Positions 22,754 to 56,088 are shown, numbered from the stretch's first letter. The stretch: DNA of 64,000 nucleotides from Verrucomicrobiia bacterium (GCA_035765675.1 DASTXC010000007.1:7696-71695), one strand, 5' to 3'. Notes: generated by a model from the sequence alone, not told the origin. Numbers and translations are program-made.

Positions 22754-24374
22754 CTAGCAGCCTGTCGGACTTAGGCTGAAGATTTTTGAAAAACTTTTGA
22801 ATGCGAAGGCGGGCGCGGGTATCAACAAATTATGCCCGCACGCTTCGTCAACCTCGACCGCCAGACGCCGATGTTCCTGCCCTGCGATCTGCGCGAATGG
22901 ATTCCCGACGACCATATCGTTCACTTCATTCTAGATGCCGTCGAGCAACTGCCCCTGGCTCGCTTCCATATCAATCATCGCGGCACCGGCAGCGAACAAT
23001 ACCCTCCGGCCATGATGCTGGCCCTGCTCATTTACTGCTACGCGACCGGGCGTTTCGGTTCGCGCACCATCGAGGCGGCCACTTACAGCGACGTGGCGGT
23101 GCGTTACATCTGCGCCAACACGCATCCCGATCACGATTCGATTTGCACCTTCCGCGCCAACAATGAGGCGGCCTTCCGCGCCGCCTTTGTCAGCGTGCTG
23201 CAACTGGCCCAACAATTGAAGTTGAGCCAATTTGGAACCGTCAGCGTGGACGGCACCAAGATCCAGGCCAACGCCAGCAAACACGCGGCGGTGAGCTATC
23301 AGCGCGCCGGCGAACTGATCGCGCAACTGGAACTGGAAGTGAACCAACTGCTGGAGCGGGCCAAAGCGGCAGAGACACAGGAAAAACAGGAAGGGCTGGA
23401 CATTCCCGCCGAACTGAAACGCCGGGAGCAGCGCCAGGCCGCGCTGCAAAAAGCGCGGGCTGTCATCGAAGAGCGGGCCAAAGAAATGGCGGCGGCGCAG
23501 CAAGCGGAGTACGAAGCCAAGGCGGCGGCGCGCCAACAACAACGCGACGAGGGAAAGAAGCCGCGCGGCAAAGACCCCCAGCCGCCCGGCGCGGAACCGG
23601 ACCCCAACGCGCAATATAACTTCACCGATCCGGAGAGCCGGATCATGAAAGCGGGCAGCGGCAACCATTTCGAGCAGGCGTACAATGCGCAAGCGGCGGT
23701 GGACGAGGCGATGTTGATCGTGGGCCAGCGCGTCAGCGACGCGCCCAACGACAAAGAGCAACTGGCGCCCAGCGTGGCGGCGATCAGCCCGGTGGTGGCG
23801 CCGGAAGTCAAAGCCGTGTTGGTGGACAGCGGATTTTACAGCGAAGCGGCGGTGGCGGCGGTGGAGCAAAAAGCCGACGGGACACCCAGCGGCATCACGG
23901 TTTACGCGGCGGTGGAAAAACATTCCCATCACAAAACGGTGGAGGACTTGTTGACGGCGGTCGAGCCTGCCGCGCCGGGAGAGCAAGCCAGCGCCAAAGA
24001 GAAGATGGCGCACCGCTTAAACACGGCGTCAGGAAGAGCGCTCTACAAGTTGCGCAAGCAGACAGTGGAGCCGGTGTTTGGGATCATCAAGGAGGTGATG
24101 GGCTTTCGGAGATTTTTATTGAGGGGGCGGGCCAAAGTGAGTTTGGAATGGACGCTGGTGTGCGTGAGTTACAACCTCAAGCGGCTCTTCGCGCTCAGAA
24201 ATCCGGCTCTGGCGGGATAAAAGCGGTCGGGGCGGGGCAAAAATCGGGGTGAACGATTTGCCAAAGCCTATCCAAGCCATCGGGAGAAAACGAAAAGTCA
24301 GTTTTCGTCAGCGGTCAGGGAACATATAGAGACGCGCTCCCCAAAACCTTCTCTCAAGTCCGACAGGCTGCTAG
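22754..24374 (+). mobile_element. IS1182-family insertion sequence
   Basis: The 19-bp perfect terminal IRs are ctagcagcctgtcggactt (22754-22772) and aagtccgacaggctgctag (24356-24374). There is a single transposase ORF. Confidence 0.85.
22832..24220 (+). CDS. IS1182-family DDE transposase
   Basis: The N-terminus is FLPCDLREWIPDDHIVHFILDAVEQL. A central Lys/Glu/Ala coiled-coil insert follows. The C-terminus is KLRKQTVEPVFGIIKEVMGFRRFLLRG. Confidence 0.9.
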   Translation: MPARFVNLDRQTPMFLPCDLREWIPDDHIVHFILDAVEQLPLARFHINHRGTGSEQYPPAMMLALLIYCYATGRFGSRTIEAATYSDVAVRYICANTHPDHDSICTFRANNEAAFRAAFVSVLQLAQQLKLSQFGTVSVDGTKIQANASKHAAVSYQRAGELIAQLELEVNQLLERAKAAETQEKQEGLDIPAELKRREQRQAALQKARAVIEERAKEMAAAQQAEYEAKAAARQQQRDEGKKPRGKDPQPPGAEPDPNAQYNFTDPESRIMKAGSGNHFEQAYNAQAAVDEAMLIVGQRVSDAPNDKEQLAPSVAAISPVVAPEVKAVLVDSGFYSEAAVAAVEQKADGTPSGITVYAAVEKHSHHKTVEDLLTAVEPAAPGEQASAKEKMAHRLNTASGRALYKLRKQTVEPVFGIIKEVMGFRRFLLRGRAKVSLEWTLVCVSYNLKRLFALRNPALAG

Positions 24375-27289: not shown

Positions 27290-30200
27290 ATGAAAAAACA
27301 AAGCCTGCTGTTCCGAGTCCTCACCTGGTTCTTCATCGCATACATGGCTGCACCGCTCAATGTGGTCGTCGGCCAAGTCCTTTTGGAACAGCCGATCATG
27401 ATGCCGAACAACACGATTCGCCTGGTGGTGGACGGGCCGACTACCGATGTCCGCTATGACGTTTACGGCACGAACACGTTGAGCAGCAGCATCTCCTCCT
27501 GGCCGCTTTTGATTACCGGCGAACCCAATCAGGTCATTTTTGATTTCGCCAATCCCTTCACCAACGCCGGGTTTTTCATCGTCACTTCCAATTACGTCGC
27601 GACGACCAACCCGCCGCCCAAAGTCGCGACACCGGTTTTCGATCCGCCGAGCGCCAGCGGCAACGCTTCCGTTCAGGTGACAGTCATCTGCGACACTCCC
27701 GGAGCCGTGATCTATTACACCATCGACGGCAGCACGCCGACGACATCCAGCACCTATATTCCCTCAGGCGGAACCGTGGCGATTCAGTGTGCAACGACCT
27801 TGAAAGCGCGGGCGTTCCGCTCTGGATTCGATGACAGCGACGTAGCAAGTGGCGTCTTTGCGATCAACTGCCAGCCAGAAATATTCGCCGGGTTGCAACA
27901 GATCATTTCCGGGAATTCAACTACGCTGGAAGGCGTGGTTTTTGACGACGGCTTGAGCCAACCGCTTTCAAACTATTGGGAAAAGATCAGCGGACCGGGC
28001 ACGGTCGCATTTACTGACGTTCATTCGACGAATACAACGGCGACGTTTTCACAAGACGGCATCTATGTGCTTCAGTTGAATTCATTCGACGGCTTCTGGA
28101 CGATTTCCGATCAGGTGACGATTGCCCGTAATCCGACCATCAGTGTCGCAATCACCGCTCCCGTTGCGAGCAGCACGTATTCGGTGCCGACAAATATCGC
28201 GCTTTCAGCTTCCGCGAGTTGCACGAGCGGCAGCATCACGCAGGTTCAGTTCTTCGCGGATTCACAATTGATCGGCACGGATGACGCGGAACCTTTCACT
28301 TACGAATGGCGCAATGTCCCTGCCGGAAATCATGCCTTGTATGCCGTGGCAATTTCCACCGATCCCGATAATTACAGTCTCCTATCCGATCCGGTGAACG
28401 TCACGATTAATTATCCGACCGACATCGGCCGATTCACGCTCGCTGCGAATGATCTGACCATTCCGGTAGCCGGTATGCCGATCACGGTCAATCGGAGTTT
28501 CGATCCTCGATACGGCAGCGGCTGGAGCCTGGGCGAAAACATGCGCTTTGATTTTGAATCGGTTCACATCGACAAATCCGCTGCACTCGGCTCCGGCTAT
28601 TTGGCGCAATACAACCTGGGACAGGATTGCATTCAGCCCAATCACGATACTTTGGTTACGGTGTCGCTGAGTCCAACCGAACAATATTATTTTCGTCCGC
28701 GCATTGTGTTTCAAGCCGGTGGTGGCAGTCCATGCGTGGGTGACAGTTCGGTAACGTATCTGGCGCCCATTAAATTCGTGTTTGATGCGGTCGGGCCGCT
28801 TGGTGGTGAACTCGCCTCGTTCAATGCGCCGAGTGATGTGGGCATGATGAATGATGATGTTTTCTTTGGTGATTGGAGCGGGTCGATTCAAGCGGGAACG
28901 GAAGACTTCTTTGAAGTGGAACCTTATGAACCGGACTGGTCGCTGTTTACATTCATCGCTCCGGACGGGACGCAGTATAAATTTGATTCCAGCGGCAAAC
29001 TGTATCAACGCATCGACCGGAACAACAATTCCCTCACTTTCAATTACGGCGACATCACGCACAGCAGCGGCAAGCAGGTGACGTTCACGCGAGATGGTTT
29101 CGGCCGCATCACCGAAGTCTATGATCCCATCGCAATTGCCACGAGCGGCAATCCCGCCGTCAAATATGATTACGACGACAGCGGCAATCTGACGAACGTC
29201 GCACGCCTGGTGGATCGCGCGGGCACGTATGAAAACACGGGCTATCGTTACGATGATTCCTCCTTTCCGCACTCGATCACGCGCGTCATTGATGCGCGAG
29301 GCGTCACGACTGTGAGCAACGTGTTTGATGAATTCGGACGATTGCAGCGGCAGTATGATGCCTCCGGCCGTTATACGAGCTTCACCTACGAAGACAACGG
29401 TCGCCGTCAGATCGTGACAGATCGCAACAGCAAAACCACTCAGCAGGAATTCACCGAGTCCGGCCAATTGAAGAGCGTGAAGGACGCAGAAAACGCGGTC
29501 ACAACCTATCAATATGATTCCAATGGCAGGCCGATTGCCCAGATTGACCCGCTCGGCTCCACCAACAGCTATGCCTACAACGAACGGGATGAACTGGTCG
29601 GCATGACCAATGAACTGAATCTCACGTCCAGTTCCACCTACAATGAATTCGGCCAACCGCTCATTCTTATCGATGCCGCCGGTTACGGAACAACCAACGG
29701 ATATGATTCCGTGGGCAATCTCATCGCGACGACCAATGCGCTCGGAATTGTGAGCCGTTACGGTTACGACACTCAAGGCAACCGCACTGCGGAAACCAAT
29801 GCGTTTGGTCGAGCAGAACAAACGGTCACGACGTATCAATACAACGAGTTCGGCTACCTCACGAATGTGATCGACGCCCTGGGCAACCAGACCGCCTATA
29901 CCTACGACGAAAATGGCAATCAACTGACGACAAAGCGGCAACGGACACTTGCCACCGGTTCATTGCAGTCGTTGTGGACAACGAATGTCTATGACGCGAT
30001 GAATCGCTCGATTGCCATCATTGATCCGGACGGCTTCACGAATCGAACGGTGTTCAATGCCATCGGACAAGTGGCCTATACCACGAACAAAGCAGGCGTG
30101 GTGATGCGCTTTGATTTTGACGAACGCGGGCTTTTGACAAACTCGGTTTTCGCGCTCGGCACCGCGCAGCAAGCCAGCGAGCAATTCCGCTATGATGCCG

Positions 30201-32809
30201 AAGGCCGCAAAACAAACAGTGTGGATCGTGCGGGCTATCATACCTCCTACACCTACGACGGCCTTGGCAGATTGACCCGCACGACCTTTGCGGACGGCAC
30301 GTTCACGGAAAATCAATATGACGCAGGCGGTCGTTTGTTTGCCACGTTGCAAGGAGCGCACGGCGACGGAATGGTTCCCGGCCCGCAATCGCTCGAAACG
30401 CATTATGAATATGATGCTGCTGGACGAAGGACGGCGGTTATCAATGCGCTCAATCAGACGAACAGCTACGCCTACGATCCCAGCGGCAATCAGACGAATT
30501 TCATCGATGCCCTGGGCCGGACCAACTCCTACACCTTCGACCGCCTCAATCGGCAAACGCGCATCATCTATCCCGACAACACCAGCGAAAGCTACGGCTA
30601 CGATGCCCTGGATCGAAAAATCGCCGTGACCAATCAGGCCAATGTTGTCGCCCGATTTGGCTTCGATAAACTCGGACAACTGCTCGCGGTCACCAATGGT
30701 TTTGGTTCCGGCACGATGAATTGGGCCACCTATGCCTATGATCAGGTTGGCAACCAAACCAATCAAGTTGATGCTCTCAAACGGCAGACGCGCTTTGAAT
30801 ATGACGTGATGGGTCGGCGTGTCCGCACGATTCTTCCTGGCGATCAAAGCGAAGGTTTCGCCTACAACGCGCTCGGAAGCGTCAGCCGATACACCAACTT
30901 CAACAATGTCGTCATAACGAATCAATATGACGCGCTGAATCGGATCACGAACAAAGCCTCCATTGGTGGCTACAATATCGCCTTCACCTATACCGCAATG
31001 GGCCAGCGCTCAACGATGGCCGACCAAAGCGGCAACTACAGCTTCGTCTATAACAACCGCAATCAGCTCCTGACGCAAAGCGGCCCCGCCGGAACGCTCA
31101 CCTACACCTACGACAATTTCGGTCGCTTGGACTCGATCACCAGCAGCCATGCAGGTGGTGCCTCGATGATGTATGATTACGATTCCCTGAACCGGCTTTC
31201 AAATGTCGTCGATACGGTGATTGGAACGACAACCTACGGCTACGACGATGTGGGCAATCTCCAGACCGTTCGTTATCCGAACGCCGTAACTAACAGCTAT
31301 ACCTATGACGCGCTCAATCGGCTGACCAACCTCACCGCTCGAACCAGCAGTGGCACGCTTGCGAGCTTCGCCTACAAACTGGCCGCTGCGGGAAATCGGA
31401 CGAACCTGGTCGATAACGTGGGCGGCACCAGTCGCACGTTCAATTGGTCTTACGATCCGCTGTATCGCTTGACAAATGAAGTTGTCACCGGCGCATCGCC
31501 GACCGGCACGATCAGCTACAAATATGATGCGGTCGGCAACCGCACGAACCGGACTTCCACCGTTGCAGGCCTTTCGAATCAAAGCTCCGCCTACAACACC
31601 AACGACTGGCTTACGACCGACGTTTACGACAGCAATGGCAGCACGCGAACGAATGGCTCAAACGTCTTCTTCTACGATGTGGAAAATCATCTGACGAACG
31701 CGACGGTGGGCGGCGTTTCAGTGAGCTACACGTATAACGGCGATGGATTGCGTGTGAGCAAAACCACCGGCGGCGTGACAACGCTTTACCTCGTGGATGA
31801 CCGCAATCCGAGCGGTTACGCGCAGGTGCTGGAAGAACTGACCGTGAGCGGCGGCGTCACCAACGTTTCCAAAGTCTTCACCTACAGCCACGATCTGATC
31901 GCCCAACGCACCGTGAGCAGCGGCGTGAAGAACTTCTACGGCTACGACGGCAACGGAAACACCCGTTACCTGACGGCGAACGACAGCACGATCAGCGACA
32001 CCTACGTTTACGACGCCTTCGGTACGCTGCTTACCAGCACCGGTTCAACGGCAAACAATTACCTCTACACCGGCGAACAATATGACAGCAGTCTGGGATT
32101 GTATTATCTGCGGGCGCGGTATCTGAACACTGGAACGGGAAGGTTTTGGACACGCGACACCTTTGCGGGAAACAACAATGATCCGGCTTCGCTGCATAAA
32201 TATCTTTATTGTTCAGCAAATCCCATAAACTTGGTTGATCCGAGCGGTTTATTGGGGATTTTCAAGTTTACACAAAAGTTCGGTTTTGAAGCTCATGATA
32301 AAATCCAATCCGCTTACCAAGCTGAGAATCCAGCAGCAATTGTCGGCTCGACAACAGGAATCCTCGGACCTCTTAAGCCTGATATTTTCAATCCGGTTAA
32401 GATGACCTATGGAGAAATAAAACCTCTTTCCTTGAGCGGCGTCGCCGCAGGGATTACACAAATCGCAACCTACGAACTTGCCTTTCGAGGAAGAGGATAT
32501 ACAGCCGAAACCTGGCCCGACGGCATTCGGGGAAGCACCGTCGGACAAATTCCAATCGCCTATTTCAACGTGGCCGGAGTTATCTTCTACACGGATATGG
32601 TTGATAATACCGAAGATTTATTGGCCCTCACGACGTTTGCGGCCGCAAGGCAGTTTATTCTAAAGAATTCGGCACTGCTCGGCAGAACTCTCATCCAGAG
32701 CGCCCCGAGAATTGCAGCATTAGTAAACGCACGAGGCCAGGGAGACACGGCGAGGTTTCAAGCAGAGTTCAGCACAGCAACTTTGCTCGCCTCCCTCGGT
32801 GTATTATGA
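27290..32809 (+). CDS. giant RHS/YD-repeat polymorphic toxin (signal peptide, chitobiase-C/Ig-like N-terminal domains, RHS shell, C-terminal PD-(D/E)xK-like toxin)
   Basis: Tens of YD repeats are present (YxYDxxGNL/RLT). The core is GRFWTRDTFAGNNNDPASLHKYLYCSANPINLVDPSGL. The 185-aa tail at 32252-32806 contains H..KPD..GEIKP. Confidence 0.95.
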   Translation: MKKQSLLFRVLTWFFIAYMAAPLNVVVGQVLLEQPIMMPNNTIRLVVDGPTTDVRYDVYGTNTLSSSISSWPLLITGEPNQVIFDFANPFTNAGFFIVTSNYVATTNPPPKVATPVFDPPSASGNASVQVTVICDTPGAVIYYTIDGSTPTTSSTYIPSGGTVAIQCATTLKARAFRSGFDDSDVASGVFAINCQPEIFAGLQQIISGNSTTLEGVVFDDGLSQPLSNYWEKISGPGTVAFTDVHSTNTTATFSQDGIYVLQLNSFDGFWTISDQVTIARNPTISVAITAPVASSTYSVPTNIALSASASCTSGSITQVQFFADSQLIGTDDAEPFTYEWRNVPAGNHALYAVAISTDPDNYSLLSDPVNVTINYPTDIGRFTLAANDLTIPVAGMPITVNRSFDPRYGSGWSLGENMRFDFESVHIDKSAALGSGYLAQYNLGQDCIQPNHDTLVTVSLSPTEQYYFRPRIVFQAGGGSPCVGDSSVTYLAPIKFVFDAVGPLGGELASFNAPSDVGMMNDDVFFGDWSGSIQAGTEDFFEVEPYEPDWSLFTFIAPDGTQYKFDSSGKLYQRIDRNNNSLTFNYGDITHSSGKQVTFTRDGFGRITEVYDPIAIATSGNPAVKYDYDDSGNLTNVARLVDRAGTYENTGYRYDDSSFPHSITRVIDARGVTTVSNVFDEFGRLQRQYDASGRYTSFTYEDNGRRQIVTDRNSKTTQQEFTESGQLKSVKDAENAVTTYQYDSNGRPIAQIDPLGSTNSYAYNERDELVGMTNELNLTSSSTYNEFGQPLILIDAAGYGTTNGYDSVGNLIATTNALGIVSRYGYDTQGNRTAETNAFGRAEQTVTTYQYNEFGYLTNVIDALGNQTAYTYDENGNQLTTKRQRTLATGSLQSLWTTNVYDAMNRSIAIIDPDGFTNRTVFNAIGQVAYTTNKAGVVMRFDFDERGLLTNSVFALGTAQQASEQFRYDAEGRKTNSVDRAGYHTSYTYDGLGRLTRTTFADGTFTENQYDAGGRLFATLQGAHGDGMVPGPQSLETHYEYDAAGRRTAVINALNQTNSYAYDPSGNQTNFIDALGRTNSYTFDRLNRQTRIIYPDNTSESYGYDALDRKIAVTNQANVVARFGFDKLGQLLAVTNGFGSGTMNWATYAYDQVGNQTNQVDALKRQTRFEYDVMGRRVRTILPGDQSEGFAYNALGSVSRYTNFNNVVITNQYDALNRITNKASIGGYNIAFTYTAMGQRSTMADQSGNYSFVYNNRNQLLTQSGPAGTLTYTYDNFGRLDSITSSHAGGASMMYDYDSLNRLSNVVDTVIGTTTYGYDDVGNLQTVRYPNAVTNSYTYDALNRLTNLTARTSSGTLASFAYKLAAAGNRTNLVDNVGGTSRTFNWSYDPLYRLTNEVVTGASPTGTISYKYDAVGNRTNRTSTVAGLSNQSSAYNTNDWLTTDVYDSNGSTRTNGSNVFFYDVENHLTNATVGGVSVSYTYNGDGLRVSKTTGGVTTLYLVDDRNPSGYAQVLEELTVSGGVTNVSKVFTYSHDLIAQRTVSSGVKNFYGYDGNGNTRYLTANDSTISDTYVYDAFGTLLTSTGSTANNYLYTGEQYDSSLGLYYLRARYLNTGTGRFWTRDTFAGNNNDPASLHKYLYCSANPINLVDPSGLLGIFKFTQKFGFEAHDKIQSAYQAENPAAIVGSTTGILGPLKPDIFNPVKMTYGEIKPLSLSGVAAGITQIATYELAFRGRGYTAETWPDGIRGSTVGQIPIAYFNVAGVIFYTDMVDNTEDLLALTTFAAARQFILKNSALLGRTLIQSAPRIAALVNARGQGDTARFQAEFSTATLLASLGVL

Positions 32810-32821
32810 TATGAAGCGCAT

Positions 32822-33244
32822 ATGAGTTCACAAATCCGACGTTTATTTCATCCGAATGGTCGAATTCGCACAGAAATTCCGACGAAAAACGGCAAAACTC
32901 ATGGAATAAAACGTGATTACCATCCCAATGGGCAGTTGGCAGCGGAAATTTCTTATGAACACGGTCTCCAACACGGAACTGCGAAAATCTGGGCATCTGA
33001 TGGTCGACTGCTCGGTGAATATTCCCTGAGTCATGGAACCGGGATTGCCAAAGTTTGGTATGATAATGGGAATCTGCAATCCGAAGTTACCTTAGTTCAA
33101 GGTCTTCCAACTGGTCGACAAAAGGCATGGTATGAAGACGGGCATCCGGCGCCCGACACCTACTGGATTAATGGAAGGAAAATATCTCGAAAAAAATATT
33201 TAGAAGCATCTCAATTGGACTCGCAGCTCCCACGTTACGGTTAA
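32822..33244 (+). CDS. YwqK-family / MORN-repeat-variant immunity protein
   Basis: Repeated G..HG....Y.NG.L units (NGKTHGIKRDYHPNGQLAAEISYEHGLQHGTAKIW..). It starts 13 nt after the RHS stop. Confidence 0.85.
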   Translation: MSSQIRRLFHPNGRIRTEIPTKNGKTHGIKRDYHPNGQLAAEISYEHGLQHGTAKIWASDGRLLGEYSLSHGTGIAKVWYDNGNLQSEVTLVQGLPTGRQKAWYEDGHPAPDTYWINGRKISRKKYLEASQLDSQLPRYG

Positions 33245-33399
33245 TATATTCAGTTCATGAGAAGGTCCATTTTGATCCGAAAACAGTGTTAATAGAAAAT
33301 CGAGTGAAATCACGATCTGCTGCTGAGTTACGCCTTTTTCCAGCTGTTTAAGACGGATATTATCTTCGAGCGTTTTCGGTGCGACGGAAACCGCCTTGA

Positions 33400-33561
33400 A
33401 GGGTCTCCGCTTCGCCGGAATATCGCGTCGAGATGTATGAATGGTGCGGTGGCTAATAACCAACAGCTGCACTGCGTTCCGAGCAGGCGATGGCTTCGCT
33501 CGATTCCCGTTCGTGAGTTGCTGACAAAGCGAGCAAATGCACGTCGACGTGGAATTATCAC
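33400..33561 (-). pseudogene. possible decayed C-terminal fragment of a tyrosine recombinase (frameshifted)
   Basis: One frame reads IIPRRRAFARFVSNSRTGIERS, compared with PH.LRH.FA..L...G. The adjacent frame reads AVQLLVISHRTIHTSRRD, compared with vq.LLGHssi.tT.rY. The catalytic residues are not preserved. Confidence 0.25.
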
Positions 33562-33570
33562 AGAGAGCGG

Positions 33571-34677
33571 CTATTTTCCTTTGAGTGGCGTCACTGGAAA
33601 AGCGCGGCCACGCGGATTTCCAGTGAAACCGGCGAAATTTACCGGAATTCCATCATCGGGCTTGTCGCCGTAGAAGCTCTCTCGATGAAAAAAATAATCC
33701 TCTGAATTCTGAGTTTTGATGAAACCCCATGGGCTACGGTTGACTTGGTAATTGTAAATGTAGCCGACCTCTCGTTCAGCGGTCGAATAGCAGATTTGAG
33801 ATAATCTCGCGACTAATTGATCAGCGGTCAGACGTTTGTTCGCGTCCTTCTGCAAACAGCCTTCAATAATATGCCACAGTTCGTCTAGCAGCGGCTTGAA
33901 TTGAAGGCTTTCGCGCTTGTAGACGCCAGCTTTGGACGGCAATCCTTGCTGCACAATCTTCGCGATTACGGCCAGACCCGAACCAAATGGTTTCTCACCG
34001 CTCAAAAGATAGAACAAGATCGCGCCTAAAGACCAGATATCTGCGGATTTGGTCGTGTTCTTAGAATCCAAAAGGAGTTCTGGTGCCATATAAGGTAAAG
34101 CGCCTACTACAGTTTGAGAACTGGTTATCGTTTCTGTTTCTCCTTTTCCCAAGTCCGAGCCTTCGATCGCTTGTCCGATCTCGGCTTCAGCCATTTTCGC
34201 GATTCCGAAGTCAGTCAACTTCAAGACGGACATGCTGGGGTCTTGAGACACCATTACATTGCTTGGCTTCAAATCACGGTGAAAGACATCGACGTGATGG
34301 CATGCTGCGACGCCTTTTGCTAAATGATGAATTATGTGAGCAGCGAGATGTGGATCTAGGTAATAGAATTCAGTGTTCAGCCGAAGCTGCAAATCTGCTC
34401 CATTAATGAACTCCTCTACCAGATAAAATGTCTCTTCAGTTTCGAAGTAGTCCAGTGTTTTGGCGACGTTCGGATGCACGACCCGGGCGCTAACTTCTGC
34501 GCTTCTACGAAATCGTTTTGTCGCTGATGGATTCTTCGGAACTTTAACTACAACAGGACGTGCGAACGCGCTATCGATAGCCTTATAGACCTGCTGCATA
34601 CCGCCTTCTCCAATAAATTTATTGATTTTGTAACGTGAGGCGATCACATCTCCGACTGCATGAATTCGATTTGTCAT
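33571..34677 (-). CDS. Hanks-type Ser/Thr kinase fused to a C-terminal cold-shock (OB-fold) domain
   Basis: The kinase motifs are GEGGMQQVY, VVVKVPK, HRDLKPSNVMV, DFGIAK and YMAPE. The tail is GYIYNYQVNRSPWGFIKTQNSEDYFFHRESF..DDGIPVNFAGFTGNPRGRAFPV. It parallels the CspA pattern G.V.WF....GFGFI....D.FVH.S....G..V.F...G.kG..A..V. Confidence 0.8.
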   Translation of the reverse strand: MTNRIHAVGDVIASRYKINKFIGEGGMQQVYKAIDSAFARPVVVKVPKNPSATKRFRRSAEVSARVVHPNVAKTLDYFETEETFYLVEEFINGADLQLRLNTEFYYLDPHLAAHIIHHLAKGVAACHHVDVFHRDLKPSNVMVSQDPSMSVLKLTDFGIAKMAEAEIGQAIEGSDLGKGETETITSSQTVVGALPYMAPELLLDSKNTTKSADIWSLGAILFYLLSGEKPFGSGLAVIAKIVQQGLPSKAGVYKRESLQFKPLLDELWHIIEGCLQKDANKRLTADQLVARLSQICYSTAEREVGYIYNYQVNRSPWGFIKTQNSEDYFFHRESFYGDKPDDGIPVNFAGFTGNPRGRAFPVTPLKGK

Positions 34678-35762
34678 TACAGAATTACCTCCGGATGTGA
34701 AATGTCAAAGGTCAGAAAACGTCGGTCACGGCGCCGGTTATCGGCAGAGATGGTTATCACACACGAACCGGGAAGAACCATTTCATCGGAAGCTCGAATA
34801 TTATTGATATCCACAATGCCTGAGATATTGCGGAGACGAAAATCAAAACCCTCATACACAATGGTGAAGCTTGCGAAACCTGGCGTTTTAACGCCGATGC
34901 CTTTACCAATCTCTGCAATTTGGTAAACTTTATCACCGTAAGTCAGCCTTCCTTCATGCTTTCCGAACAACAGATGAGCAGCTATTTCATCTCGCATGAA
35001 TGCCATCTCAGGACGTTTAGCAGGGATAACATTCAATGTCGAGTTAAGAGCGTCCGAAAGCCGTTTCGGGAGTCCAATAGTGTGAGTTGAGAAGGATGGT
35101 GGCGGAACAGTATCGAAGGGAGGAACTTCCAAAAAACCTTTTGGAAATCTCGGATCAAGCAACTCCCACGCAGTGACTCCGAATGCATACGTATCGACAG
35201 CGGCTGTGACTGTCGCAGGGGCGGCGGTATATAACTCGGGCGCACGGTAAACATCGGTGCCTCTCCCGGTTGTAGTCACAGGAGGCGGTTTGTGGTCACA
35301 CGCCAATCCAAAATCGAAAATTTTCAAAATTTTCTCAGAATCGAATTTCATGTTCACTGGTTTTATATCCCGGTGGATTTTCCCATGCGAATGGATGTCG
35401 GCGATTCCCGAAGCGATCTGGAATATAACTTTAAGGTAATCTTGAACCCCTTTCACTCCGCCCGAAGCAAAGTCCGGAAGCTCGTCTCCGGAAAGATACT
35501 CTTGCACTACTGCTGCAACTGAGGCTCCTTCATCCTTGAAGAAATCGAAAATTCGCACCACGTGCTTGGATTCGATTGTAGAGAGAGCAGCGACTTCATT
35601 TTGGAGCGTCTGACAGTCAGTTACCTCCTTTACAATTTTGATCGCCACTTCTCGGCCCAACCATTTATCCCGACAAACCATTACCTTGCCCTGACCTCCG
35701 CTGAAGGTCTTTGTCGCCGGACCATACCGATTGGGAATGGTCAACCCGCCTTTTGCACTCAT
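34677..35762 (-). CDS. Hanks-type Ser/Thr kinase with C-terminal beta-rich (FHA-like?) domain
   Basis: The kinase motifs are GGQGKVMV, VAIKIV, HRDIKPVNM, DFGLA and YRAPE. The roughly 110-aa tail (..FTIVYEGFDFRLRNISGIVDINNIRASDEMVLPGSCVITIS..) is loosely FHA-patterned. Confidence 0.8.
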   Translation of the reverse strand: MSAKGGLTIPNRYGPATKTFSGGQGKVMVCRDKWLGREVAIKIVKEVTDCQTLQNEVAALSTIESKHVVRIFDFFKDEGASVAAVVQEYLSGDELPDFASGGVKGVQDYLKVIFQIASGIADIHSHGKIHRDIKPVNMKFDSEKILKIFDFGLACDHKPPPVTTTGRGTDVYRAPELYTAAPATVTAAVDTYAFGVTAWELLDPRFPKGFLEVPPFDTVPPPSFSTHTIGLPKRLSDALNSTLNVIPAKRPEMAFMRDEIAAHLLFGKHEGRLTYGDKVYQIAEIGKGIGVKTPGFASFTIVYEGFDFRLRNISGIVDINNIRASDEMVLPGSCVITISADNRRRDRRFLTFDISHPEVIL

Positions 35763-36868
35763 GTTTCTGGATTTTCAGTGATTTCTATCTCAGGAAGACC
35801 TTGACCCTTCGCAGACAGTTTTTTCCTCTTTTTCTGAATGGGCTTTTTCTTCTGAGAATCTGTAAAAACATGTTGAGGACCATGAAAACTAGCGTCCTCT
35901 CTTAAAATGAGACAACGGCTTCTTTCCACGTCCTCAGAATTCACAAACATTTCGAGCTTCCCAAAGCTGTCCCAAACCTCCAATAGGCCGGGCGAACGGA
36001 AGCTCTCTCGAAAAATGTGATTGTAGTCAGTTGTCCTCGGCAGACAAATTATCGTTCCATTGTCAGCTCCTTTCGCCCACGTCACCACAGATGTGATTCT
36101 CTTCACTGTTTCACTTGCCGTAGGAGCGCGCTCAACGAACTCTGAAAGCATTTTCTCGCCGAGGTAATGGATGCCATCTGATGTAATGAAAAGGTTCTTT
36201 TCGTCAGGAAGGCGAACCGATTTCGGCTGCAAACTTGGCCCCATTCCCAAGTATTGAGTCAATTGCTTCGAAAAAGTGCCGCCGGAGCCGAAATTTCCAA
36301 GAAGTTGCAGTTGGCTCTCAATATTGTCATCAGAGGAGATTTGGACTAGACCGGTTTGATCTCGTGCGTAAATTCGACTGTCTCCTACGTTTATACCCTG
36401 CGGTCTGAAGGACGGTGTAAGGCAAACTGCTGAGTATGTGCAGCCGCCATTTTCATGATAGAAACGAAAAATATCTTCATTCGCTGCGAAAGCTGCGTCC
36501 CTCATCCGTCGAAAAAGTTCTTCTCGGCAGTTGGCTATCAATTCGAGAATGGCACCCGAGAGCGCGAGACTGGCGCAAACACCACCATCACGTAAACCTC
36601 CGATACCGTCACACAATCCATAAAACACGAACGATTCAGATGGAAATCTTGAAGAGTAACGTGCGATCACGGCGCGATCTTGATTTTCTGATCGGACGTT
36701 TCCAACGGTCGTTCCGATTGCCCCAAGACCATCAGCGTCATTTATTCCATCCGGTCGGGTTGGTCGATCAAGCCATTTTGCGAGGCGTTGCTGGAATTTC
36801 TGTTTCACCTGTCGAAAAAAACATTTTGGTTTTGAAGTGGGCCAAATGCAATCCGTAAACGCAGACAT
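35759..36868 (-). CDS. PP2C-family Ser/Thr phosphatase with Lys-rich C-terminal extension
   Basis: The PP2C motifs are VRSENQDRAVI, GLCDGIGGLRDG, INVGDSRIY, ITSDGIHYL and ADNGTIICL. The stop overlaps the kinase start (ATGA). Confidence 0.85.
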   Translation of the reverse strand: MSAFTDCIWPTSKPKCFFRQVKQKFQQRLAKWLDRPTRPDGINDADGLGAIGTTVGNVRSENQDRAVIARYSSRFPSESFVFYGLCDGIGGLRDGGVCASLALSGAILELIANCREELFRRMRDAAFAANEDIFRFYHENGGCTYSAVCLTPSFRPQGINVGDSRIYARDQTGLVQISSDDNIESQLQLLGNFGSGGTFSKQLTQYLGMGPSLQPKSVRLPDEKNLFITSDGIHYLGEKMLSEFVERAPTASETVKRITSVVTWAKGADNGTIICLPRTTDYNHIFRESFRSPGLLEVWDSFGKLEMFVNSEDVERSRCLILREDASFHGPQHVFTDSQKKKPIQKKRKKLSAKGQGLPEIEITENPET

Positions 36869-36975
36869 TGCAATCCTTTGAAGTTGGCGGCATGACCCGG
36901 TTTACAAAGACAAAAAATCGATCAACAGGCATTCGCCGCCCGGGCATCCGAAGAGCACTGTTGTGCTGTATAGGC

Positions 36976-37167
36976 TTAAGGTTTGCCGCTGACGAGGCGC
37001 TGGTATGTTCCCAAAACACCCACCATTTCCCGAATGTGGCACGCTTTCGGTCGCATCACACCGTCTTTCCAGGCTTTCACCAGGGCTGATGCAATTCCCA
37101 TTTTAAACGCCAGGTGATATGGAGCCATTTCATGCTCCCGGAGCTTCACCTGAATCCAGTCAGCCAT
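36976..37167 (-). CDS. small HTH (XRE-like) protein
   Basis: MADWIQVKLREHEMAPYHLAFKMGIASALVKAWKDGVMRPKACHIREMVGVLG fits an HTH_3-type layout. The start was chosen at the internal ATG. The longest ORF (to 37260) runs into a repeat or tRNA-like fragment. Confidence 0.45.
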   Translation of the reverse strand: MADWIQVKLREHEMAPYHLAFKMGIASALVKAWKDGVMRPKACHIREMVGVLGTYQRLVSGKP

Positions 37168-37380
37168 CGTTTTCACGCTTGCAGGCAAGGGTTTAGGTTG
37201 CGACGGTTTCCTTGCAATTGGCGCGAATTTAACTGAAATTTGCCGGTATGCAAAACCCAACTGAGCTACTCTCCTCCGGCTTCGCCCGGAGGAGAGGGAG
37301 TGATCAGCCGTTTTGAATTTCGAAAGTTCAACCCGTTGTTTGGTGCGGGTGCCAAGTTGCGCCCCTTTGAACCCGCGCGA

Positions 37381-46835: not shown

Positions 46836-47186
46836 GAAGACCCTTGAATTCAACGCAAAGACGCAAAGGAGCCAGGGCGCAAAGGAAACGCAAACGGAAT
46901 TCTGCAGCAACGATGGATCGAACTCCAGCAGGTCGAGGTGGCCGATCACTCCCTCTCTTCCGAGCGAAGCCGGAGGAGAGGGTCGGGGTGAGGAGGTTTT
47001 CAGCTCAAAATCCGTTCGCCCTGACTCTCTCCTCACGCTTCACGTCCGCGGAATCGGAGCGCGAGTCTGCGACTCGCAGCACGTTCGAAAGGCGGCAGGC
47101 TGGAAATCTTTTTCGCGCGCTCGTTGCCAGCTTCGTTGCTGCGGCTCACAGAGTCGCGCTCCGATGGCGCCTTCGATCAAGCCGTT
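46836..47186. repeat. mosaic of dispersed repeats (family 1 inverted copy ~46940-47040 plus ggagcgcg..cgcgctcc hairpin units)
   Basis: ccctctcttccgagcgaagccggaggagaggg and ggagcgcgagtctgcgactcgcagc ... gagtcgcgctccg. These are the same units seen at 51326-51430 and 56586-56650. Confidence 0.7.
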
Positions 47187-51231: not shown

Positions 51232-51845
51232 TTTCGGGTGAGTGGGTGAGTCGGTGGGCCGGTGAGTGTCATGCCGGATAACTCCCTCTCTTCCTGACGA
51301 AGGAATTTTGAAATGCGAACGGAGCGCAGGTCTGTGACCTGCAGCAGCGAGATTTTGCAGGCGGGCGATCGGATCAGTGGAAGCTACGGATTTGCGAAGC
51401 CGCTGCGAGTCACAGACTCGCGCTCCGATAAAGAGAGTTCATGGGGAGGAGGATTTTTAGTTCGTCATTTAAAGCGTTTCTCGAATTCATTTCCGGAAAG
51501 CCCTCATTCCCAGCCCTTTTCCCATCGGATGGAAGAAGGTGGCCAGAGGCCGGAGGAGGGTTTCACCACCCGCTTTTCGGAAATAACTTTTGGGAATCAC
51601 TCTGGTTCAGAATCTCCTCTGGCTTGCGTTCTCCCGGAGTCGGCCACATTCGCTGCGTCACAAAATGCTTCAAGTTTTCTGCGTTTCATCCGATAGGCTG
51701 ATGTTGCGCCCCGAAACGGCGTGACGAATGGGTGTTGGTGTCCGTTTGTTTGCCGCCTGTCGCCAGGCCAGAACTTCGTTTCGCGTTCTGACCTTCCTTC
51801 TTCCGGCATTTCGCCGACCGCTCCCGATGAACTTTTAGTCTGACT

Positions 51846-54075: not shown

Positions 54076-56088
54076 TCAGTTCTCCCGCATCAAAGTCGCT
54101 TCGGCTTCACGCAACGCTTTCAACATTTCCGCGGCGGAAGCGTAGCGCTGCTCCACCGTCAATTGACACGCTTTCAGAATCACGCGATTGAGCGCGTTGA
54201 ATTCAATCGTCGTTTTGCTTTCAATCAAGGTGCTCGAAAGTTCCGGAAACGCGGACGCCGAATTGCCGGTGCTGAGAACATAAAGCACCATGCCCAGCGC
54301 GTAGATATCGGCCTGCGGCGTGCCCGGCGCCTCCGGCGGCGGCGGCATGTATCCCGGCGTGCCGACCAGCGTGCGCGGCTGTTCAGGGGAACGGATTTCC
54401 GCGATCAATCCCACATCCGCGAGCCGCGGTTCGCCATTCACGAAAATCACGTTCTGCGGTTTGATGTCGCGATGCGTCAGTCCGCTGCGATGCAGAAAAT
54501 CGAGCGCGTCGCACAGCTTCAATCCGATGCGAACGCATTCAATCGTCGGCAAACGATGCTTGAGCAAATCTTCGCGCACGCTGACCAGATCGCGCGGACG
54601 GTAGCTCGCGGGATTTCCGTTCCAGTCCGGATCAACCGCGTCACCGAGTTCCATGATGTAATAAAAATGGCCCGGCAGTTTTTCGCTGACGAAATGCACG
54701 CGCAACAATCCTGGGTGCTGATCGGAGAACGGCTGGTAACGGCTCACGCCATTGAACTCGCGATCATACGGGCCGACGTTCGCATCGAATCGCGCGAGAT
54801 AGACAATCTTCAACGCTTCCCAACGTCCTCCAGGCTTGCGCGCGAGCCAGACTTTTCCATAAGCGCCTTCACCGAAAGGCGTCGGCGCGAGTTCGTAACC
54901 AGGAATTTTTGGAACCGGTTCGGGCGCGGCTTTTTCCGCAACGGCCGGCGCGGTTGCGAGCGTTCGCGTCCATTCGGTGGCGGCGCGCACGCGAGTCACG
55001 AACGTCCACGCCAAAGCGCATGGCGCCTGACCACCGACGATCACCAGCCAGGGAAACCATCGATCCAGGAAATAACTTGAGCAGATCGCAGCCACCGTTC
55101 CGCCGAGCATCACGGCCACGGTAATTCCCATCGCGGGAAGCAGGTGCAACTGGCACAGCTTCCAGCCGAGAACGCCTCCGATGATTACGAGAATCAAAAA
55201 CTCCATCGCACCGGGCAACCGCTCCAGCCAATCCCCGTTCAGCAGGTTGAGCGTTGAAGTAATCAGGATGTCCACGCCGCCGATCGATTCGCCTGTCCAG
55301 CGCGTGTAAGGACTGGAAAACTCGTCCGCTTCATCGTCAGGCATGGGCGTTTTAGGATGATTTCCAATGAACACAATGGCGTCGCGGAAAAAACCTTTGG
55401 GTTGCGACAACGCAAAGCGATAGCTCAGTTCCGTCCACGCGGCGGTCTGGCCGTAATAGCGCAACCAGCGTTCGCGCGGTTCATCTTCGGTCGTTGCGCC
55501 CATGAGTTTGGCGACGGTTTCAGGCAGGCTGGGATAAAGCGCGGGCGAAGGAAACGGCCAGTGGCGGCGCACAACGGAATCCAGATCCGGCGCGACCCAC
55601 GCCACGCCCCAGTTCGTGGCCGCGTTTAGAAATAATTCGCCGGGAAGAATGGGATGCGCGCCGGTCAATGACGGATGCGTGAGCCGGCTTTGTTCCGCCA
55701 TCAGAACCACCGCGCGCTGGCGTTGGAGCGCGTCGGCCAATGCGGCGTCGGAAACGGGATCGCGTGGCGCACGAAAAAAGGAATCGAACACCGCCACCGC
55801 GCAGCCGTCGTCGGCGAGGCGATTCAGCAATTGCGCGTGCAAAGCGCGATCCCACGGCTGGCCGCGGGTTTGATGAAAGTAATCGTAGGCTTCGTTGTCC
55901 AACTGGATCAGCACGACGCGATTCGTGACCGCATGGGAGCCGAAGCGAAACAGGTAATCGTAGCTCGCGTTGGTCCAGCTTTCGCCGAGGGACATTTTCC
56001 AAAGCGCCAATCCGCAGAGCATCACCAGCAAAGCGCCCACGGCGGAATTCGCCGTTCGCTTGAGGGATTTGGATTTCGCGTTTGGCAC
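54076..56088 (-). CDS. CHASE2-domain Ser/Thr protein kinase
   Basis: The N-terminal CHASE2 region reads VVLIQLDNEAYDYF..GQPWDR. Three or four TM helices follow. The C-terminal kinase has HRDIKPQNVIF and GTPGYMPPP. Confidence 0.85.
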   Translation of the reverse strand: MPNAKSKSLKRTANSAVGALLVMLCGLALWKMSLGESWTNASYDYLFRFGSHAVTNRVVLIQLDNEAYDYFHQTRGQPWDRALHAQLLNRLADDGCAVAVFDSFFRAPRDPVSDAALADALQRQRAVVLMAEQSRLTHPSLTGAHPILPGELFLNAATNWGVAWVAPDLDSVVRRHWPFPSPALYPSLPETVAKLMGATTEDEPRERWLRYYGQTAAWTELSYRFALSQPKGFFRDAIVFIGNHPKTPMPDDEADEFSSPYTRWTGESIGGVDILITSTLNLLNGDWLERLPGAMEFLILVIIGGVLGWKLCQLHLLPAMGITVAVMLGGTVAAICSSYFLDRWFPWLVIVGGQAPCALAWTFVTRVRAATEWTRTLATAPAVAEKAAPEPVPKIPGYELAPTPFGEGAYGKVWLARKPGGRWEALKIVYLARFDANVGPYDREFNGVSRYQPFSDQHPGLLRVHFVSEKLPGHFYYIMELGDAVDPDWNGNPASYRPRDLVSVREDLLKHRLPTIECVRIGLKLCDALDFLHRSGLTHRDIKPQNVIFVNGEPRLADVGLIAEIRSPEQPRTLVGTPGYMPPPPEAPGTPQADIYALGMVLYVLSTGNSASAFPELSSTLIESKTTIEFNALNRVILKACQLTVEQRYASAAEMLKALREAEATLMREN

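Follow-up and report, generated by a model that had tools for sequence, protein, structure and literature searches.

A probable kinase-kinase-phosphatase module beside an RHS toxin locus in a Verrucomicrobiae genome

Kinase-kinase-phosphatase (KKP) modules were described in a preprint in 2022 (bioRxiv 10.1101/2022.09.05.506569) and published in 2024 (Guo et al., Nat Commun 2024, PMC11341870). They comprise PfpC, PfkB and PfkA, encoded in the order phosphatase, kinase, kinase, where PfkB is a kinase with an FHA tail and PfkA a kinase with a cold-shock domain (CSD) that bears a GFI/GFA motif (PMC11341870). More than 1200 KKP clusters have been reported, mostly from P2, P4, Mu-like and Pf prophages, with a prophage location for over 90% of published KKPs (PMC11341870). 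Toxicity arises only when both kinases are present: they then autophosphorylate and also modify many essential replication, translation and division proteins by phosphorylation, causing growth arrest, and this toxicity needs both tails and the HRD/DFG motifs (PMC11341870). The catalytic motifs of PfpC neutralise kinase toxicity, and T4 Gp59 binds PfpC and partially inhibits it, so that the kinases are released; KKPs from four hosts, all four of those tested, guarded Escherichia coli against T4 and T-odd phages (PMC11341870). For KKP in Pseudomonas, phosphorylation of MvaU controls Pf lysogeny (PMC11341870). Here we describe a block of three genes (33571-36868) in a 64,000-nucleotide (nt) stretch of DNA from a Verrucomicrobiae metagenome-assembled genome (MAG; GCA_035765675.1, DASTXC010000007.1:7696-71695), hereafter the window. 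By homology, the block is with high probability a member of the KKP family, predicted to encode a PfpC-like PP2C phosphatase, a PfkB-like kinase and a PfkA-like kinase that form a three-part phosphorylation-based toxin-antitoxin and abortive-infection module.

The assignment is carried by homology along the whole of each protein and by the constancy of the triad. All three proteins aligned end to end with the triad of the Klebsiella P2-like phage Kp4865-2 (33% identity for the PP2C, 35% for the PfkB-like and 42% for the PfkA-like kinase) and with the triad of the E. coli S40 P2 prophage (26%, 37% and 46%, respectively), which has the replication endonuclease gene on one side and the portal gene on the other. 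The match of the CSD-kinase to a Klebsiella P2-like phage covered 97% of its length, and the full triad there adjoins an integrase. With lengths of 1110, 1086 and 1107 bp, the window genes lie within the filter of 900-1300 bp per gene that was applied in the KKP paper (PMC11341870). When complete E. coli genomes were searched with the Klebsiella triad, megablast gave no match, whereas a search in distant mode found it in 17 genomes. A scan of genome contigs with the CSD-kinase alignment, which captured generic kinase peptides, returned a single KKP among 80 loci (in Massilia eburnea) and 79 ordinary kinases. A preliminary description of the window, made from the sequence alone, had proposed a phospho-signalling defence module, and this reading is upheld by full-length homology to an experimentally validated KKP toxin-antitoxin and anti-phage system. 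The layout, which it did not recognise as a named system, is published as KKP (PfpC-PfkB-PfkA; PMC11341870).

A survey of gene neighbourhoods gave a fixed triad with changing neighbours. Every PP2C neighbourhood that we fetched had the PP2C followed by two kinases (~355 and ~360 amino acids [aa]) with varying flanking genes, and local tblastn recovered the triad, in the same order and with both tails included, in all 22 loci with the PP2C family, 12 of which were IMG/VR viral contigs. The triad was flanked by McrBC and an N6/N4 DNA methyltransferase in locus L001 (11273-12508), by a phage integrase in L002, by queA/tgt in a Pseudomonas genome and by unrelated genes in L009. In the closest relative (L008, 3119-6797), whose CSD-kinase was 74% identical to that of the window, the triad stood directly downstream of Lamassu-like LmuB_C, CTD7 and MC3 genes. 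McrBC, methyltransferase and Lamassu-like neighbours are typical defence-island company.

The three enzyme genes were recovered as open reading frames (ORFs) at the coordinates previously assigned to them (Table 1), following one another 5' to 3' on the minus strand as PP2C, kinase with FHA-like tail and kinase with CSD tail. Proteins 100% identical to those of the window are present at NCBI, which places the window in a Verrucomicrobiae MAG. The PP2C and the first kinase overlap by 4 nt (ATGA, 35759-35762) and the two kinase ORFs share 1 nt within TAATG (34675-34679); the three genes are translationally coupled. The greater AT-richness of the block, which had been judged without computation, is genuine though modest: its GC content was 47.2% versus 52.5% for the window, in the 6th percentile of 3.3-kb windows, and the drop started at ~32250, within the C-terminal tip of a neighbouring RHS toxin.

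Beyond its catalytic core the PP2C carries a C-terminal extension (aa 276-369), in which the block 'LEVWDSFGKL' is conserved and the tail is rich in Lys. NCBIfam Stp1_PP2C matched the protein at E 3e-20 over positions 2-230 of the 232 in the profile, the phage protein family phrog_17277 matched it at E 1e-63, and there was no match among the PADLOC v2 models. We found 235 relatives of ~350-400 aa, many of them named PrpC/PP2C and close ones named PrpC/PPM by JGI, in Pseudomonas, Janthinobacterium, Yersinia, Rheinheimera and many metagenomes. When the protein was aligned over its full length with the prophage PP2Cs of loci L006 and L007, R59, N62-R65, D87, G88, G90, G91, G162, D163, D231, G232, D269 and N270 were invariant, the metal-binding Asp motifs being among the invariant columns. 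The motifs RSENQD, CDGIGG, VGDSRIY, TSDGI and DNGT, reported earlier as intact, all fell on invariant columns of the family alignment. The start codon is uncertain: the longest ORF begins at an ATG at 36868 with an AAGGA motif upstream, and the NCBI annotation has 349 aa. An alternative start lies ~20 codons downstream (region 36808-36868), and most homologues start near residue 21.

Both Hanks kinase cores were also intact, as had been described, with Pkinase matches at E 4e-51 for the PfkA-like and 5e-35 for the PfkB-like protein and their motifs on invariant family columns. Beyond the kinase domain, neither protein (~360 aa each) gave any further domain match, nor any match to a periplasmic domain. 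Because every family-invariant catalytic and motif residue is retained in the window copy, its best reading would be that of an active KKP-type module.

The kinase tails had been called a CSD and an FHA-like domain; the first call is well supported by profile and model, and of the second the all-beta character stands while the FHA fold was weakly matched. A profile built from 30 tails of the CSD-kinase family matched the cold-shock domains of CspB and Unr in the PDB (E 1e-6 to 8e-6), and PF00313 matched 23 of the 30 family tails, the window tail by itself not being matched. An AlphaFold2 model of the PfkA-like kinase (pLDDT 91) had five strands at aa 302-365, with pLDDT above 90 in the tail, which also carries the GFI motif. 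The model of the PfkB-like kinase (pLDDT 92) had eight strands in its tail (aa 271-354), and this tail was homologous from end to end to its counterparts in prophage PfkB-like proteins; its designation as FHA is accepted here by homology, being taken over from the published description of PfkB. PF00498 weakly matched one of 27 PfkB-family tails (E 0.046), and hhalign against seven verified FHA domains gave a probability of 13% (P 0.002), covering the C-terminal half only, in the expected register. A Foldseek search with the whole PfkB-like model against the PDB returned kinases only.

Several results weigh against a KKP assignment. The Pfam search of the PP2C gave no match at E<=0.1, and PF13672 failed to detect it. 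A profile of the FHA-like tail had no match in the PDB, and the PfkB-like tail showed no recognisable GR or SxxH motif of the canonical phosphothreonine-binding kind. No phage genes, integrase, tRNA, att-like direct repeats or Rfam RNAs were found around the block in the window. Furthermore, the proteins compared directly were those of P2-prophage triads of like architecture and not the experimental MPAO1, 15EC039 and CT18 proteins. All sequence-level hallmarks of KKP were found in the window copy bar independent evidence for the FHA fold.

By analogy with the published modules, the two window kinases, acting jointly via their tails, would phosphorylate many essential host proteins and stop growth, and the co-translated PP2C would constantly undo this phosphorylation. 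A phage protein that blocks the phosphatase, as T4 Gp59 does in the E. coli system, would free the kinases, and phage production would be halted. Toxicity, antitoxin action, trigger and anti-phage phenotype of the window copy are most likely those given in the literature, from which they are carried over.

Table 1. Features of the KKP-like block and its surroundings (positions in the window; aa, amino acids)
Feature	Position	Strand	Details
PfpC-like PP2C phosphatase, predicted antitoxin	35759-36868	minus	369 aa, 1110 bp; catalytic core aa 53-275 (~36044-36712)
PfkB-like Hanks Ser/Thr kinase with all-beta FHA-like tail, predicted co-toxin	34677-35762	minus	361 aa, 1086 bp; kinase domain roughly aa 21-262
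FHA-like all-beta tail of PfkB-like kinase	~34680-34970	minus	aa 265-361
PfkA-like Hanks Ser/Thr kinase with cold-shock-domain tail, predicted co-toxin	33571-34677	minus	368 aa, 1107 bp; kinase domain aa 16-290
Cold-shock domain of PfkA-like kinase	~33583-33774	minus	aa 302-365; GFI motif G318-F-I
Small XRE/MBF1-type helix-turn-helix (HTH) gene	36976-37260	minus	probably 94 aa, TTG start at 37260
REP-like hairpin repeat	37269-37305	minus	37 nt; directly upstream of HTH gene, right islet edge
Decayed second HTH copy (probable)	33317-33460	minus	spacer between CSD-kinase stop codon and RHS immunity gene
RHS toxin	27290-32809	plus	1839 aa; RHS_repeat x10, Big_7, CHB_HEX_C
MORN_2 putative immunity protein	32822-33244	plus	MORN_2 E 3e-18

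Upstream of the PP2C lies a small helix-turn-helix (HTH) gene, annotated by NCBI as a hypothetical protein, which the preliminary description had counted as part of a four-gene operon. The three enzyme genes and the HTH gene are all real, but the HTH gene is a neighbour and not a conserved component of KKP: it was absent from all 22 other KKP loci, and KKP was found in none of the 80 metagenome loci that encode it. Its extent also required revision. The version first given (36976-37167) had 63 aa from an ATG at 37167, but the gene probably encodes 94 aa, because a conserved N-terminal block (LGFAYRxISVKF...KPLPASVKT) precedes that ATG; of the 80 homologous metagenome loci that we retrieved, ~70 kept the N-terminal 31 residues. 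HTH_3 was found in 20 of 30 family members, PDB matches of the family comprised MBF1, a PbsX-family regulator and the P22 C2 repressor, and homologues formed 82 clusters. The family was frequent in soil and peat metagenomes (loci L106-L185). The HTH protein may act as a local regulator of downstream cargo.

The REP-like hairpin upstream of this gene (GATCACTCCCTCTCYTCCGRGCGAAGCCGGAGGAGAG), described before as a host REP-type repeat, proved to be a genuine dispersed repeat, with a second full copy at 46944-46980 (plus strand; 0 matches expected by chance) and a partial one at 51280-51294. At several HTH loci, DNA homology reached across the hairpin upstream of the gene. Many metagenome contigs with the HTH gene started within ~100 nt upstream of it, as if a repeat at that place breaks assemblies. 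On the other side of the block, the segment 33317-33460 ranked second of the window's 907 six-frame ORFs in a search with the HTH-family hidden Markov model (E 0.0099), and matched the HTH family by hhalign (P 3e-4) and one of its metagenome loci (L125) by tblastn (E 3e-4). These values make it a borderline candidate for a decayed HTH-family copy, in which case one intact and one decayed HTH copy would bracket KKP. The segment partly overlaps a stretch (33400-33561) that had been read as a decayed recombinase-like fragment, for which we found no support in Pfam, PHROG, PDB or integrase BLASTP. For the spacer at 33328-33561, too, Pfam, PHROG and PDB gave nothing and BLASTP to two integrases was non-significant, the sole integrase alignment (E 7.3) resting on an R-H-x-x-A...LLG motif.

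As the preliminary description had it, the block comes directly after an RHS toxin/immunity pair (27290-33244). We found ten RHS repeats in the toxin, followed by a MORN_2 protein, and the pair is convergent with the block. The MORN_2-repeat protein is presumably the RHS immunity factor, and the pair is context that lies outside KKP. The RHS protein has PKD-like domains, a low-GC C-terminal tip and what appears by eye to be an N-terminal signal peptide. Genes near the block were RHS, MORN, TIG/DUF11, M29 peptidase and LysR, and the nearest mobile gene, and the sole one seen in the vicinity, was an insertion sequence-type DDE transposase (22832-24220, plus strand; DDE_Tnp_1, DDE_Tnp_1_6, DUF772) ~9 kb off; the triad is outside any recognisable prophage. 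Elsewhere in the window, a weak kinase-like tblastn match to both KKP kinases (54265-54540, minus strand; 27% identity, E 0.002-0.004) lay inside an ORF at 54076-56088, which suggests another Ser/Thr kinase gene there.

In this setting KKP appears as cargo of low GC content, with a lineage-specific XRE-type HTH gene on one side and a convergent RHS/immunity pair on the other, the 3.3-kb triad filling the HTH-to-RHS slot. At least 3 kb of sequence was available downstream of the HTH gene in 29 loci; in 12 of these a convergent RHS gene followed at a distance of 0.4-3.9 kb (2.1-3.9 kb in 11 of them), the same geometry as in the window. One of the related loci (L107) had an HTH gene 77% and an RHS gene 49% identical to those of the window, with an unrelated ORF in an HTH-to-immunity slot of ~1 kb. 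Same-strand genes after other HTH copies included type II Wadjet JetA (DUF2397; L161), a ResIII helicase (L163), an ECF sigma factor (L112) and surface proteins. Cassettes across HTH slots would accordingly be KKP in the window and type II Wadjet JetA (DUF2397) or a ResIII helicase elsewhere. It is possible, though doubtful, that in this Verrucomicrobia-like lineage the REP-preceded HTH gene marks a recurrent cargo slot convergent to RHS. The HTH/RHS junction would then be a hitherto undescribed hotspot at which defence genes integrate, the HTH protein would be its local regulator, and KKP would have arrived by recombination between HTH-family copies.

Since KKP is a bona fide toxin-antitoxin system (PMC11341870) and the cassette sits in a variable slot between intact and decayed HTH-family copies, it might serve mainly as an addiction cassette that stabilises the HTH/RHS islet, or be selfish cargo, without net anti-phage benefit in this host. 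Protection against T4 and T-odd phages was, however, seen with all four tested KKPs, which came from different hosts (PMC11341870), and addiction is compatible with, not exclusive of, a KKP defence role; as the main explanation we consider it very unlikely. Even less likely would be housekeeping or developmental Ser/Thr signalling of the PknB/Stp1 type, acting on envelope, division or transcription rather than in conflict. The best NCBIfam names were PknB_PASTA_kin and Stp1_PP2C, both far under their cut-offs, the window offers no prophage context, and the Pseudomonas KKP does have a regulatory output, in which MvaU phosphorylation controls Pf lysogeny (PMC11341870). Yet the window proteins have neither PASTA nor transmembrane segments; the triad is patchy across phyla, fixed in composition amid shifting neighbours, and occurs in P2 prophages as well as on 12 viral contigs; the block is low in GC, and its closest relatives adjoin Lamassu-like and McrBC genes.

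Proximity to the RHS/immunity pair, and the presence of an FHA-like module with a kinase/phosphatase pair in the block, might instead speak for functional coupling to the RHS toxin, for example as a PpkA/PppA/Fha1-like threonine-phosphorylation switch over RHS delivery or immunity. Against such coupling, which we rate the least probable of the alternatives and extremely unlikely, RHS was a conserved neighbour in none of the 22 other KKP loci, and the slot in related HTH/RHS loci held other genes, with KKP in none of 80. In addition, the RHS protein has a signal peptide and Ig/PKD domains with no PAAR or type VI secretion system (T6SS) context, and the window kinases lack the transmembrane segment and periplasmic domain of the PpkA type. 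A KKP-type conflict module stays the preferred reading of the block.

Read in this way, the block is a new copy of a published system and largely ordinary. It carries little weight as a discovery because KKP has already been published and mechanistically studied. Its novelty lies in the host phylum, in a location next to an RHS locus instead of in a prophage and, possibly, in an HTH/RHS cargo slot. Neither Verrucomicrobia nor Planctomycetes appeared in the part of the KKP paper's supplement that we examined, so their absence from it is unproven (PMC11341870). The window copy extends the range of KKP to a Verrucomicrobiae MAG, and the neighbour genes, rather than the taxonomy, of related metagenome loci hint at wider carriage in the Planctomycetes-Verrucomicrobia-Chlamydiae (PVC) group. 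It also indicates that KKP is able to sit outside prophages, beside polymorphic-toxin loci. For annotation there is a warning: automatic pipelines may mislabel KKP loci, because Pfam misses the PP2C, PADLOC-DB v2 has no matching PP2C model and the kinases score strongly on the PD-T4-6 and mad6 models.

Among other named systems, the TerY-P triad, which reportedly consists of a vWA protein (TerY), a PP2C and a Ser/Thr kinase and featured in the Gao et al. 2020 screen, had been proposed as one of the nearest relatives. Like the window block, it combines a writer (kinase) and an eraser (PP2C) in a defence setting. However, TerY-P needs the vWA protein TerY and a single kinase, whereas the window has two kinases with FHA-like and CSD tails; no vWA match was found in the block or the scanned flanking genes, the PP2C matches no PADLOC model, and it is KKP triads that align over their full length. 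PD-T4-6, Stk2 and the MADS kinase mad6 have the Hanks kinase domain in common with the window proteins, and the PADLOC models matched the PfkA-like and PfkB-like kinases, over the kinase domain only, at E 9e-64 and 1.5e-39 (mad6) and at E 6e-54 and 1.6e-30 (PD-T4-6); unlike the window genes, each of them stands alone or belongs to another system, and lacks a partner kinase, a PP2C and CSD/FHA tails. The T6SS PpkA/PppA/Fha1 pathway was also considered and set aside, as FHA-like and kinase parts form one protein here, there is no periplasmic domain and no T6SS core genes are adjacent.

Closer is prpZ-prkY-prkX of Salmonella Typhi, which is described as a macrophage-survival locus that lies in SPI-10 on a P4-like phage (Faucher et al. 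2008, cited in PMC6267989). Judged by this description, it resembles the window block in that a prophage-like element encodes a PP2C together with two Ser/Thr kinases of eukaryotic type, and differs in being presented as a survival and not a defence locus. In all probability it is a triad of this kind, namely the CT18 KKP tested by Guo et al. KKP itself (MPAO1 Pf6 and P2, P4 and Mu-like prophages) remains the nearest system. The window copy departs from it in its host, a Verrucomicrobiae MAG where the paper names Proteobacteria, Cyanobacteria and Bacteroidetes (PMC11341870), in its location outside a recognisable prophage, in a PP2C divergent enough to escape PF13672 and in an identity of only 26-46% to enterobacterial prophage versions. 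It agrees with KKP in gene order, gene sizes and translational coupling, in a PP2C with an intact N-terminal catalytic core followed by a kinase whose tail is assigned to the FHA type by homology and another whose tail is a CSD with GFI motif, in full-length homology to P2-prophage triads, and in having relatives in defence-island-like neighbourhoods.

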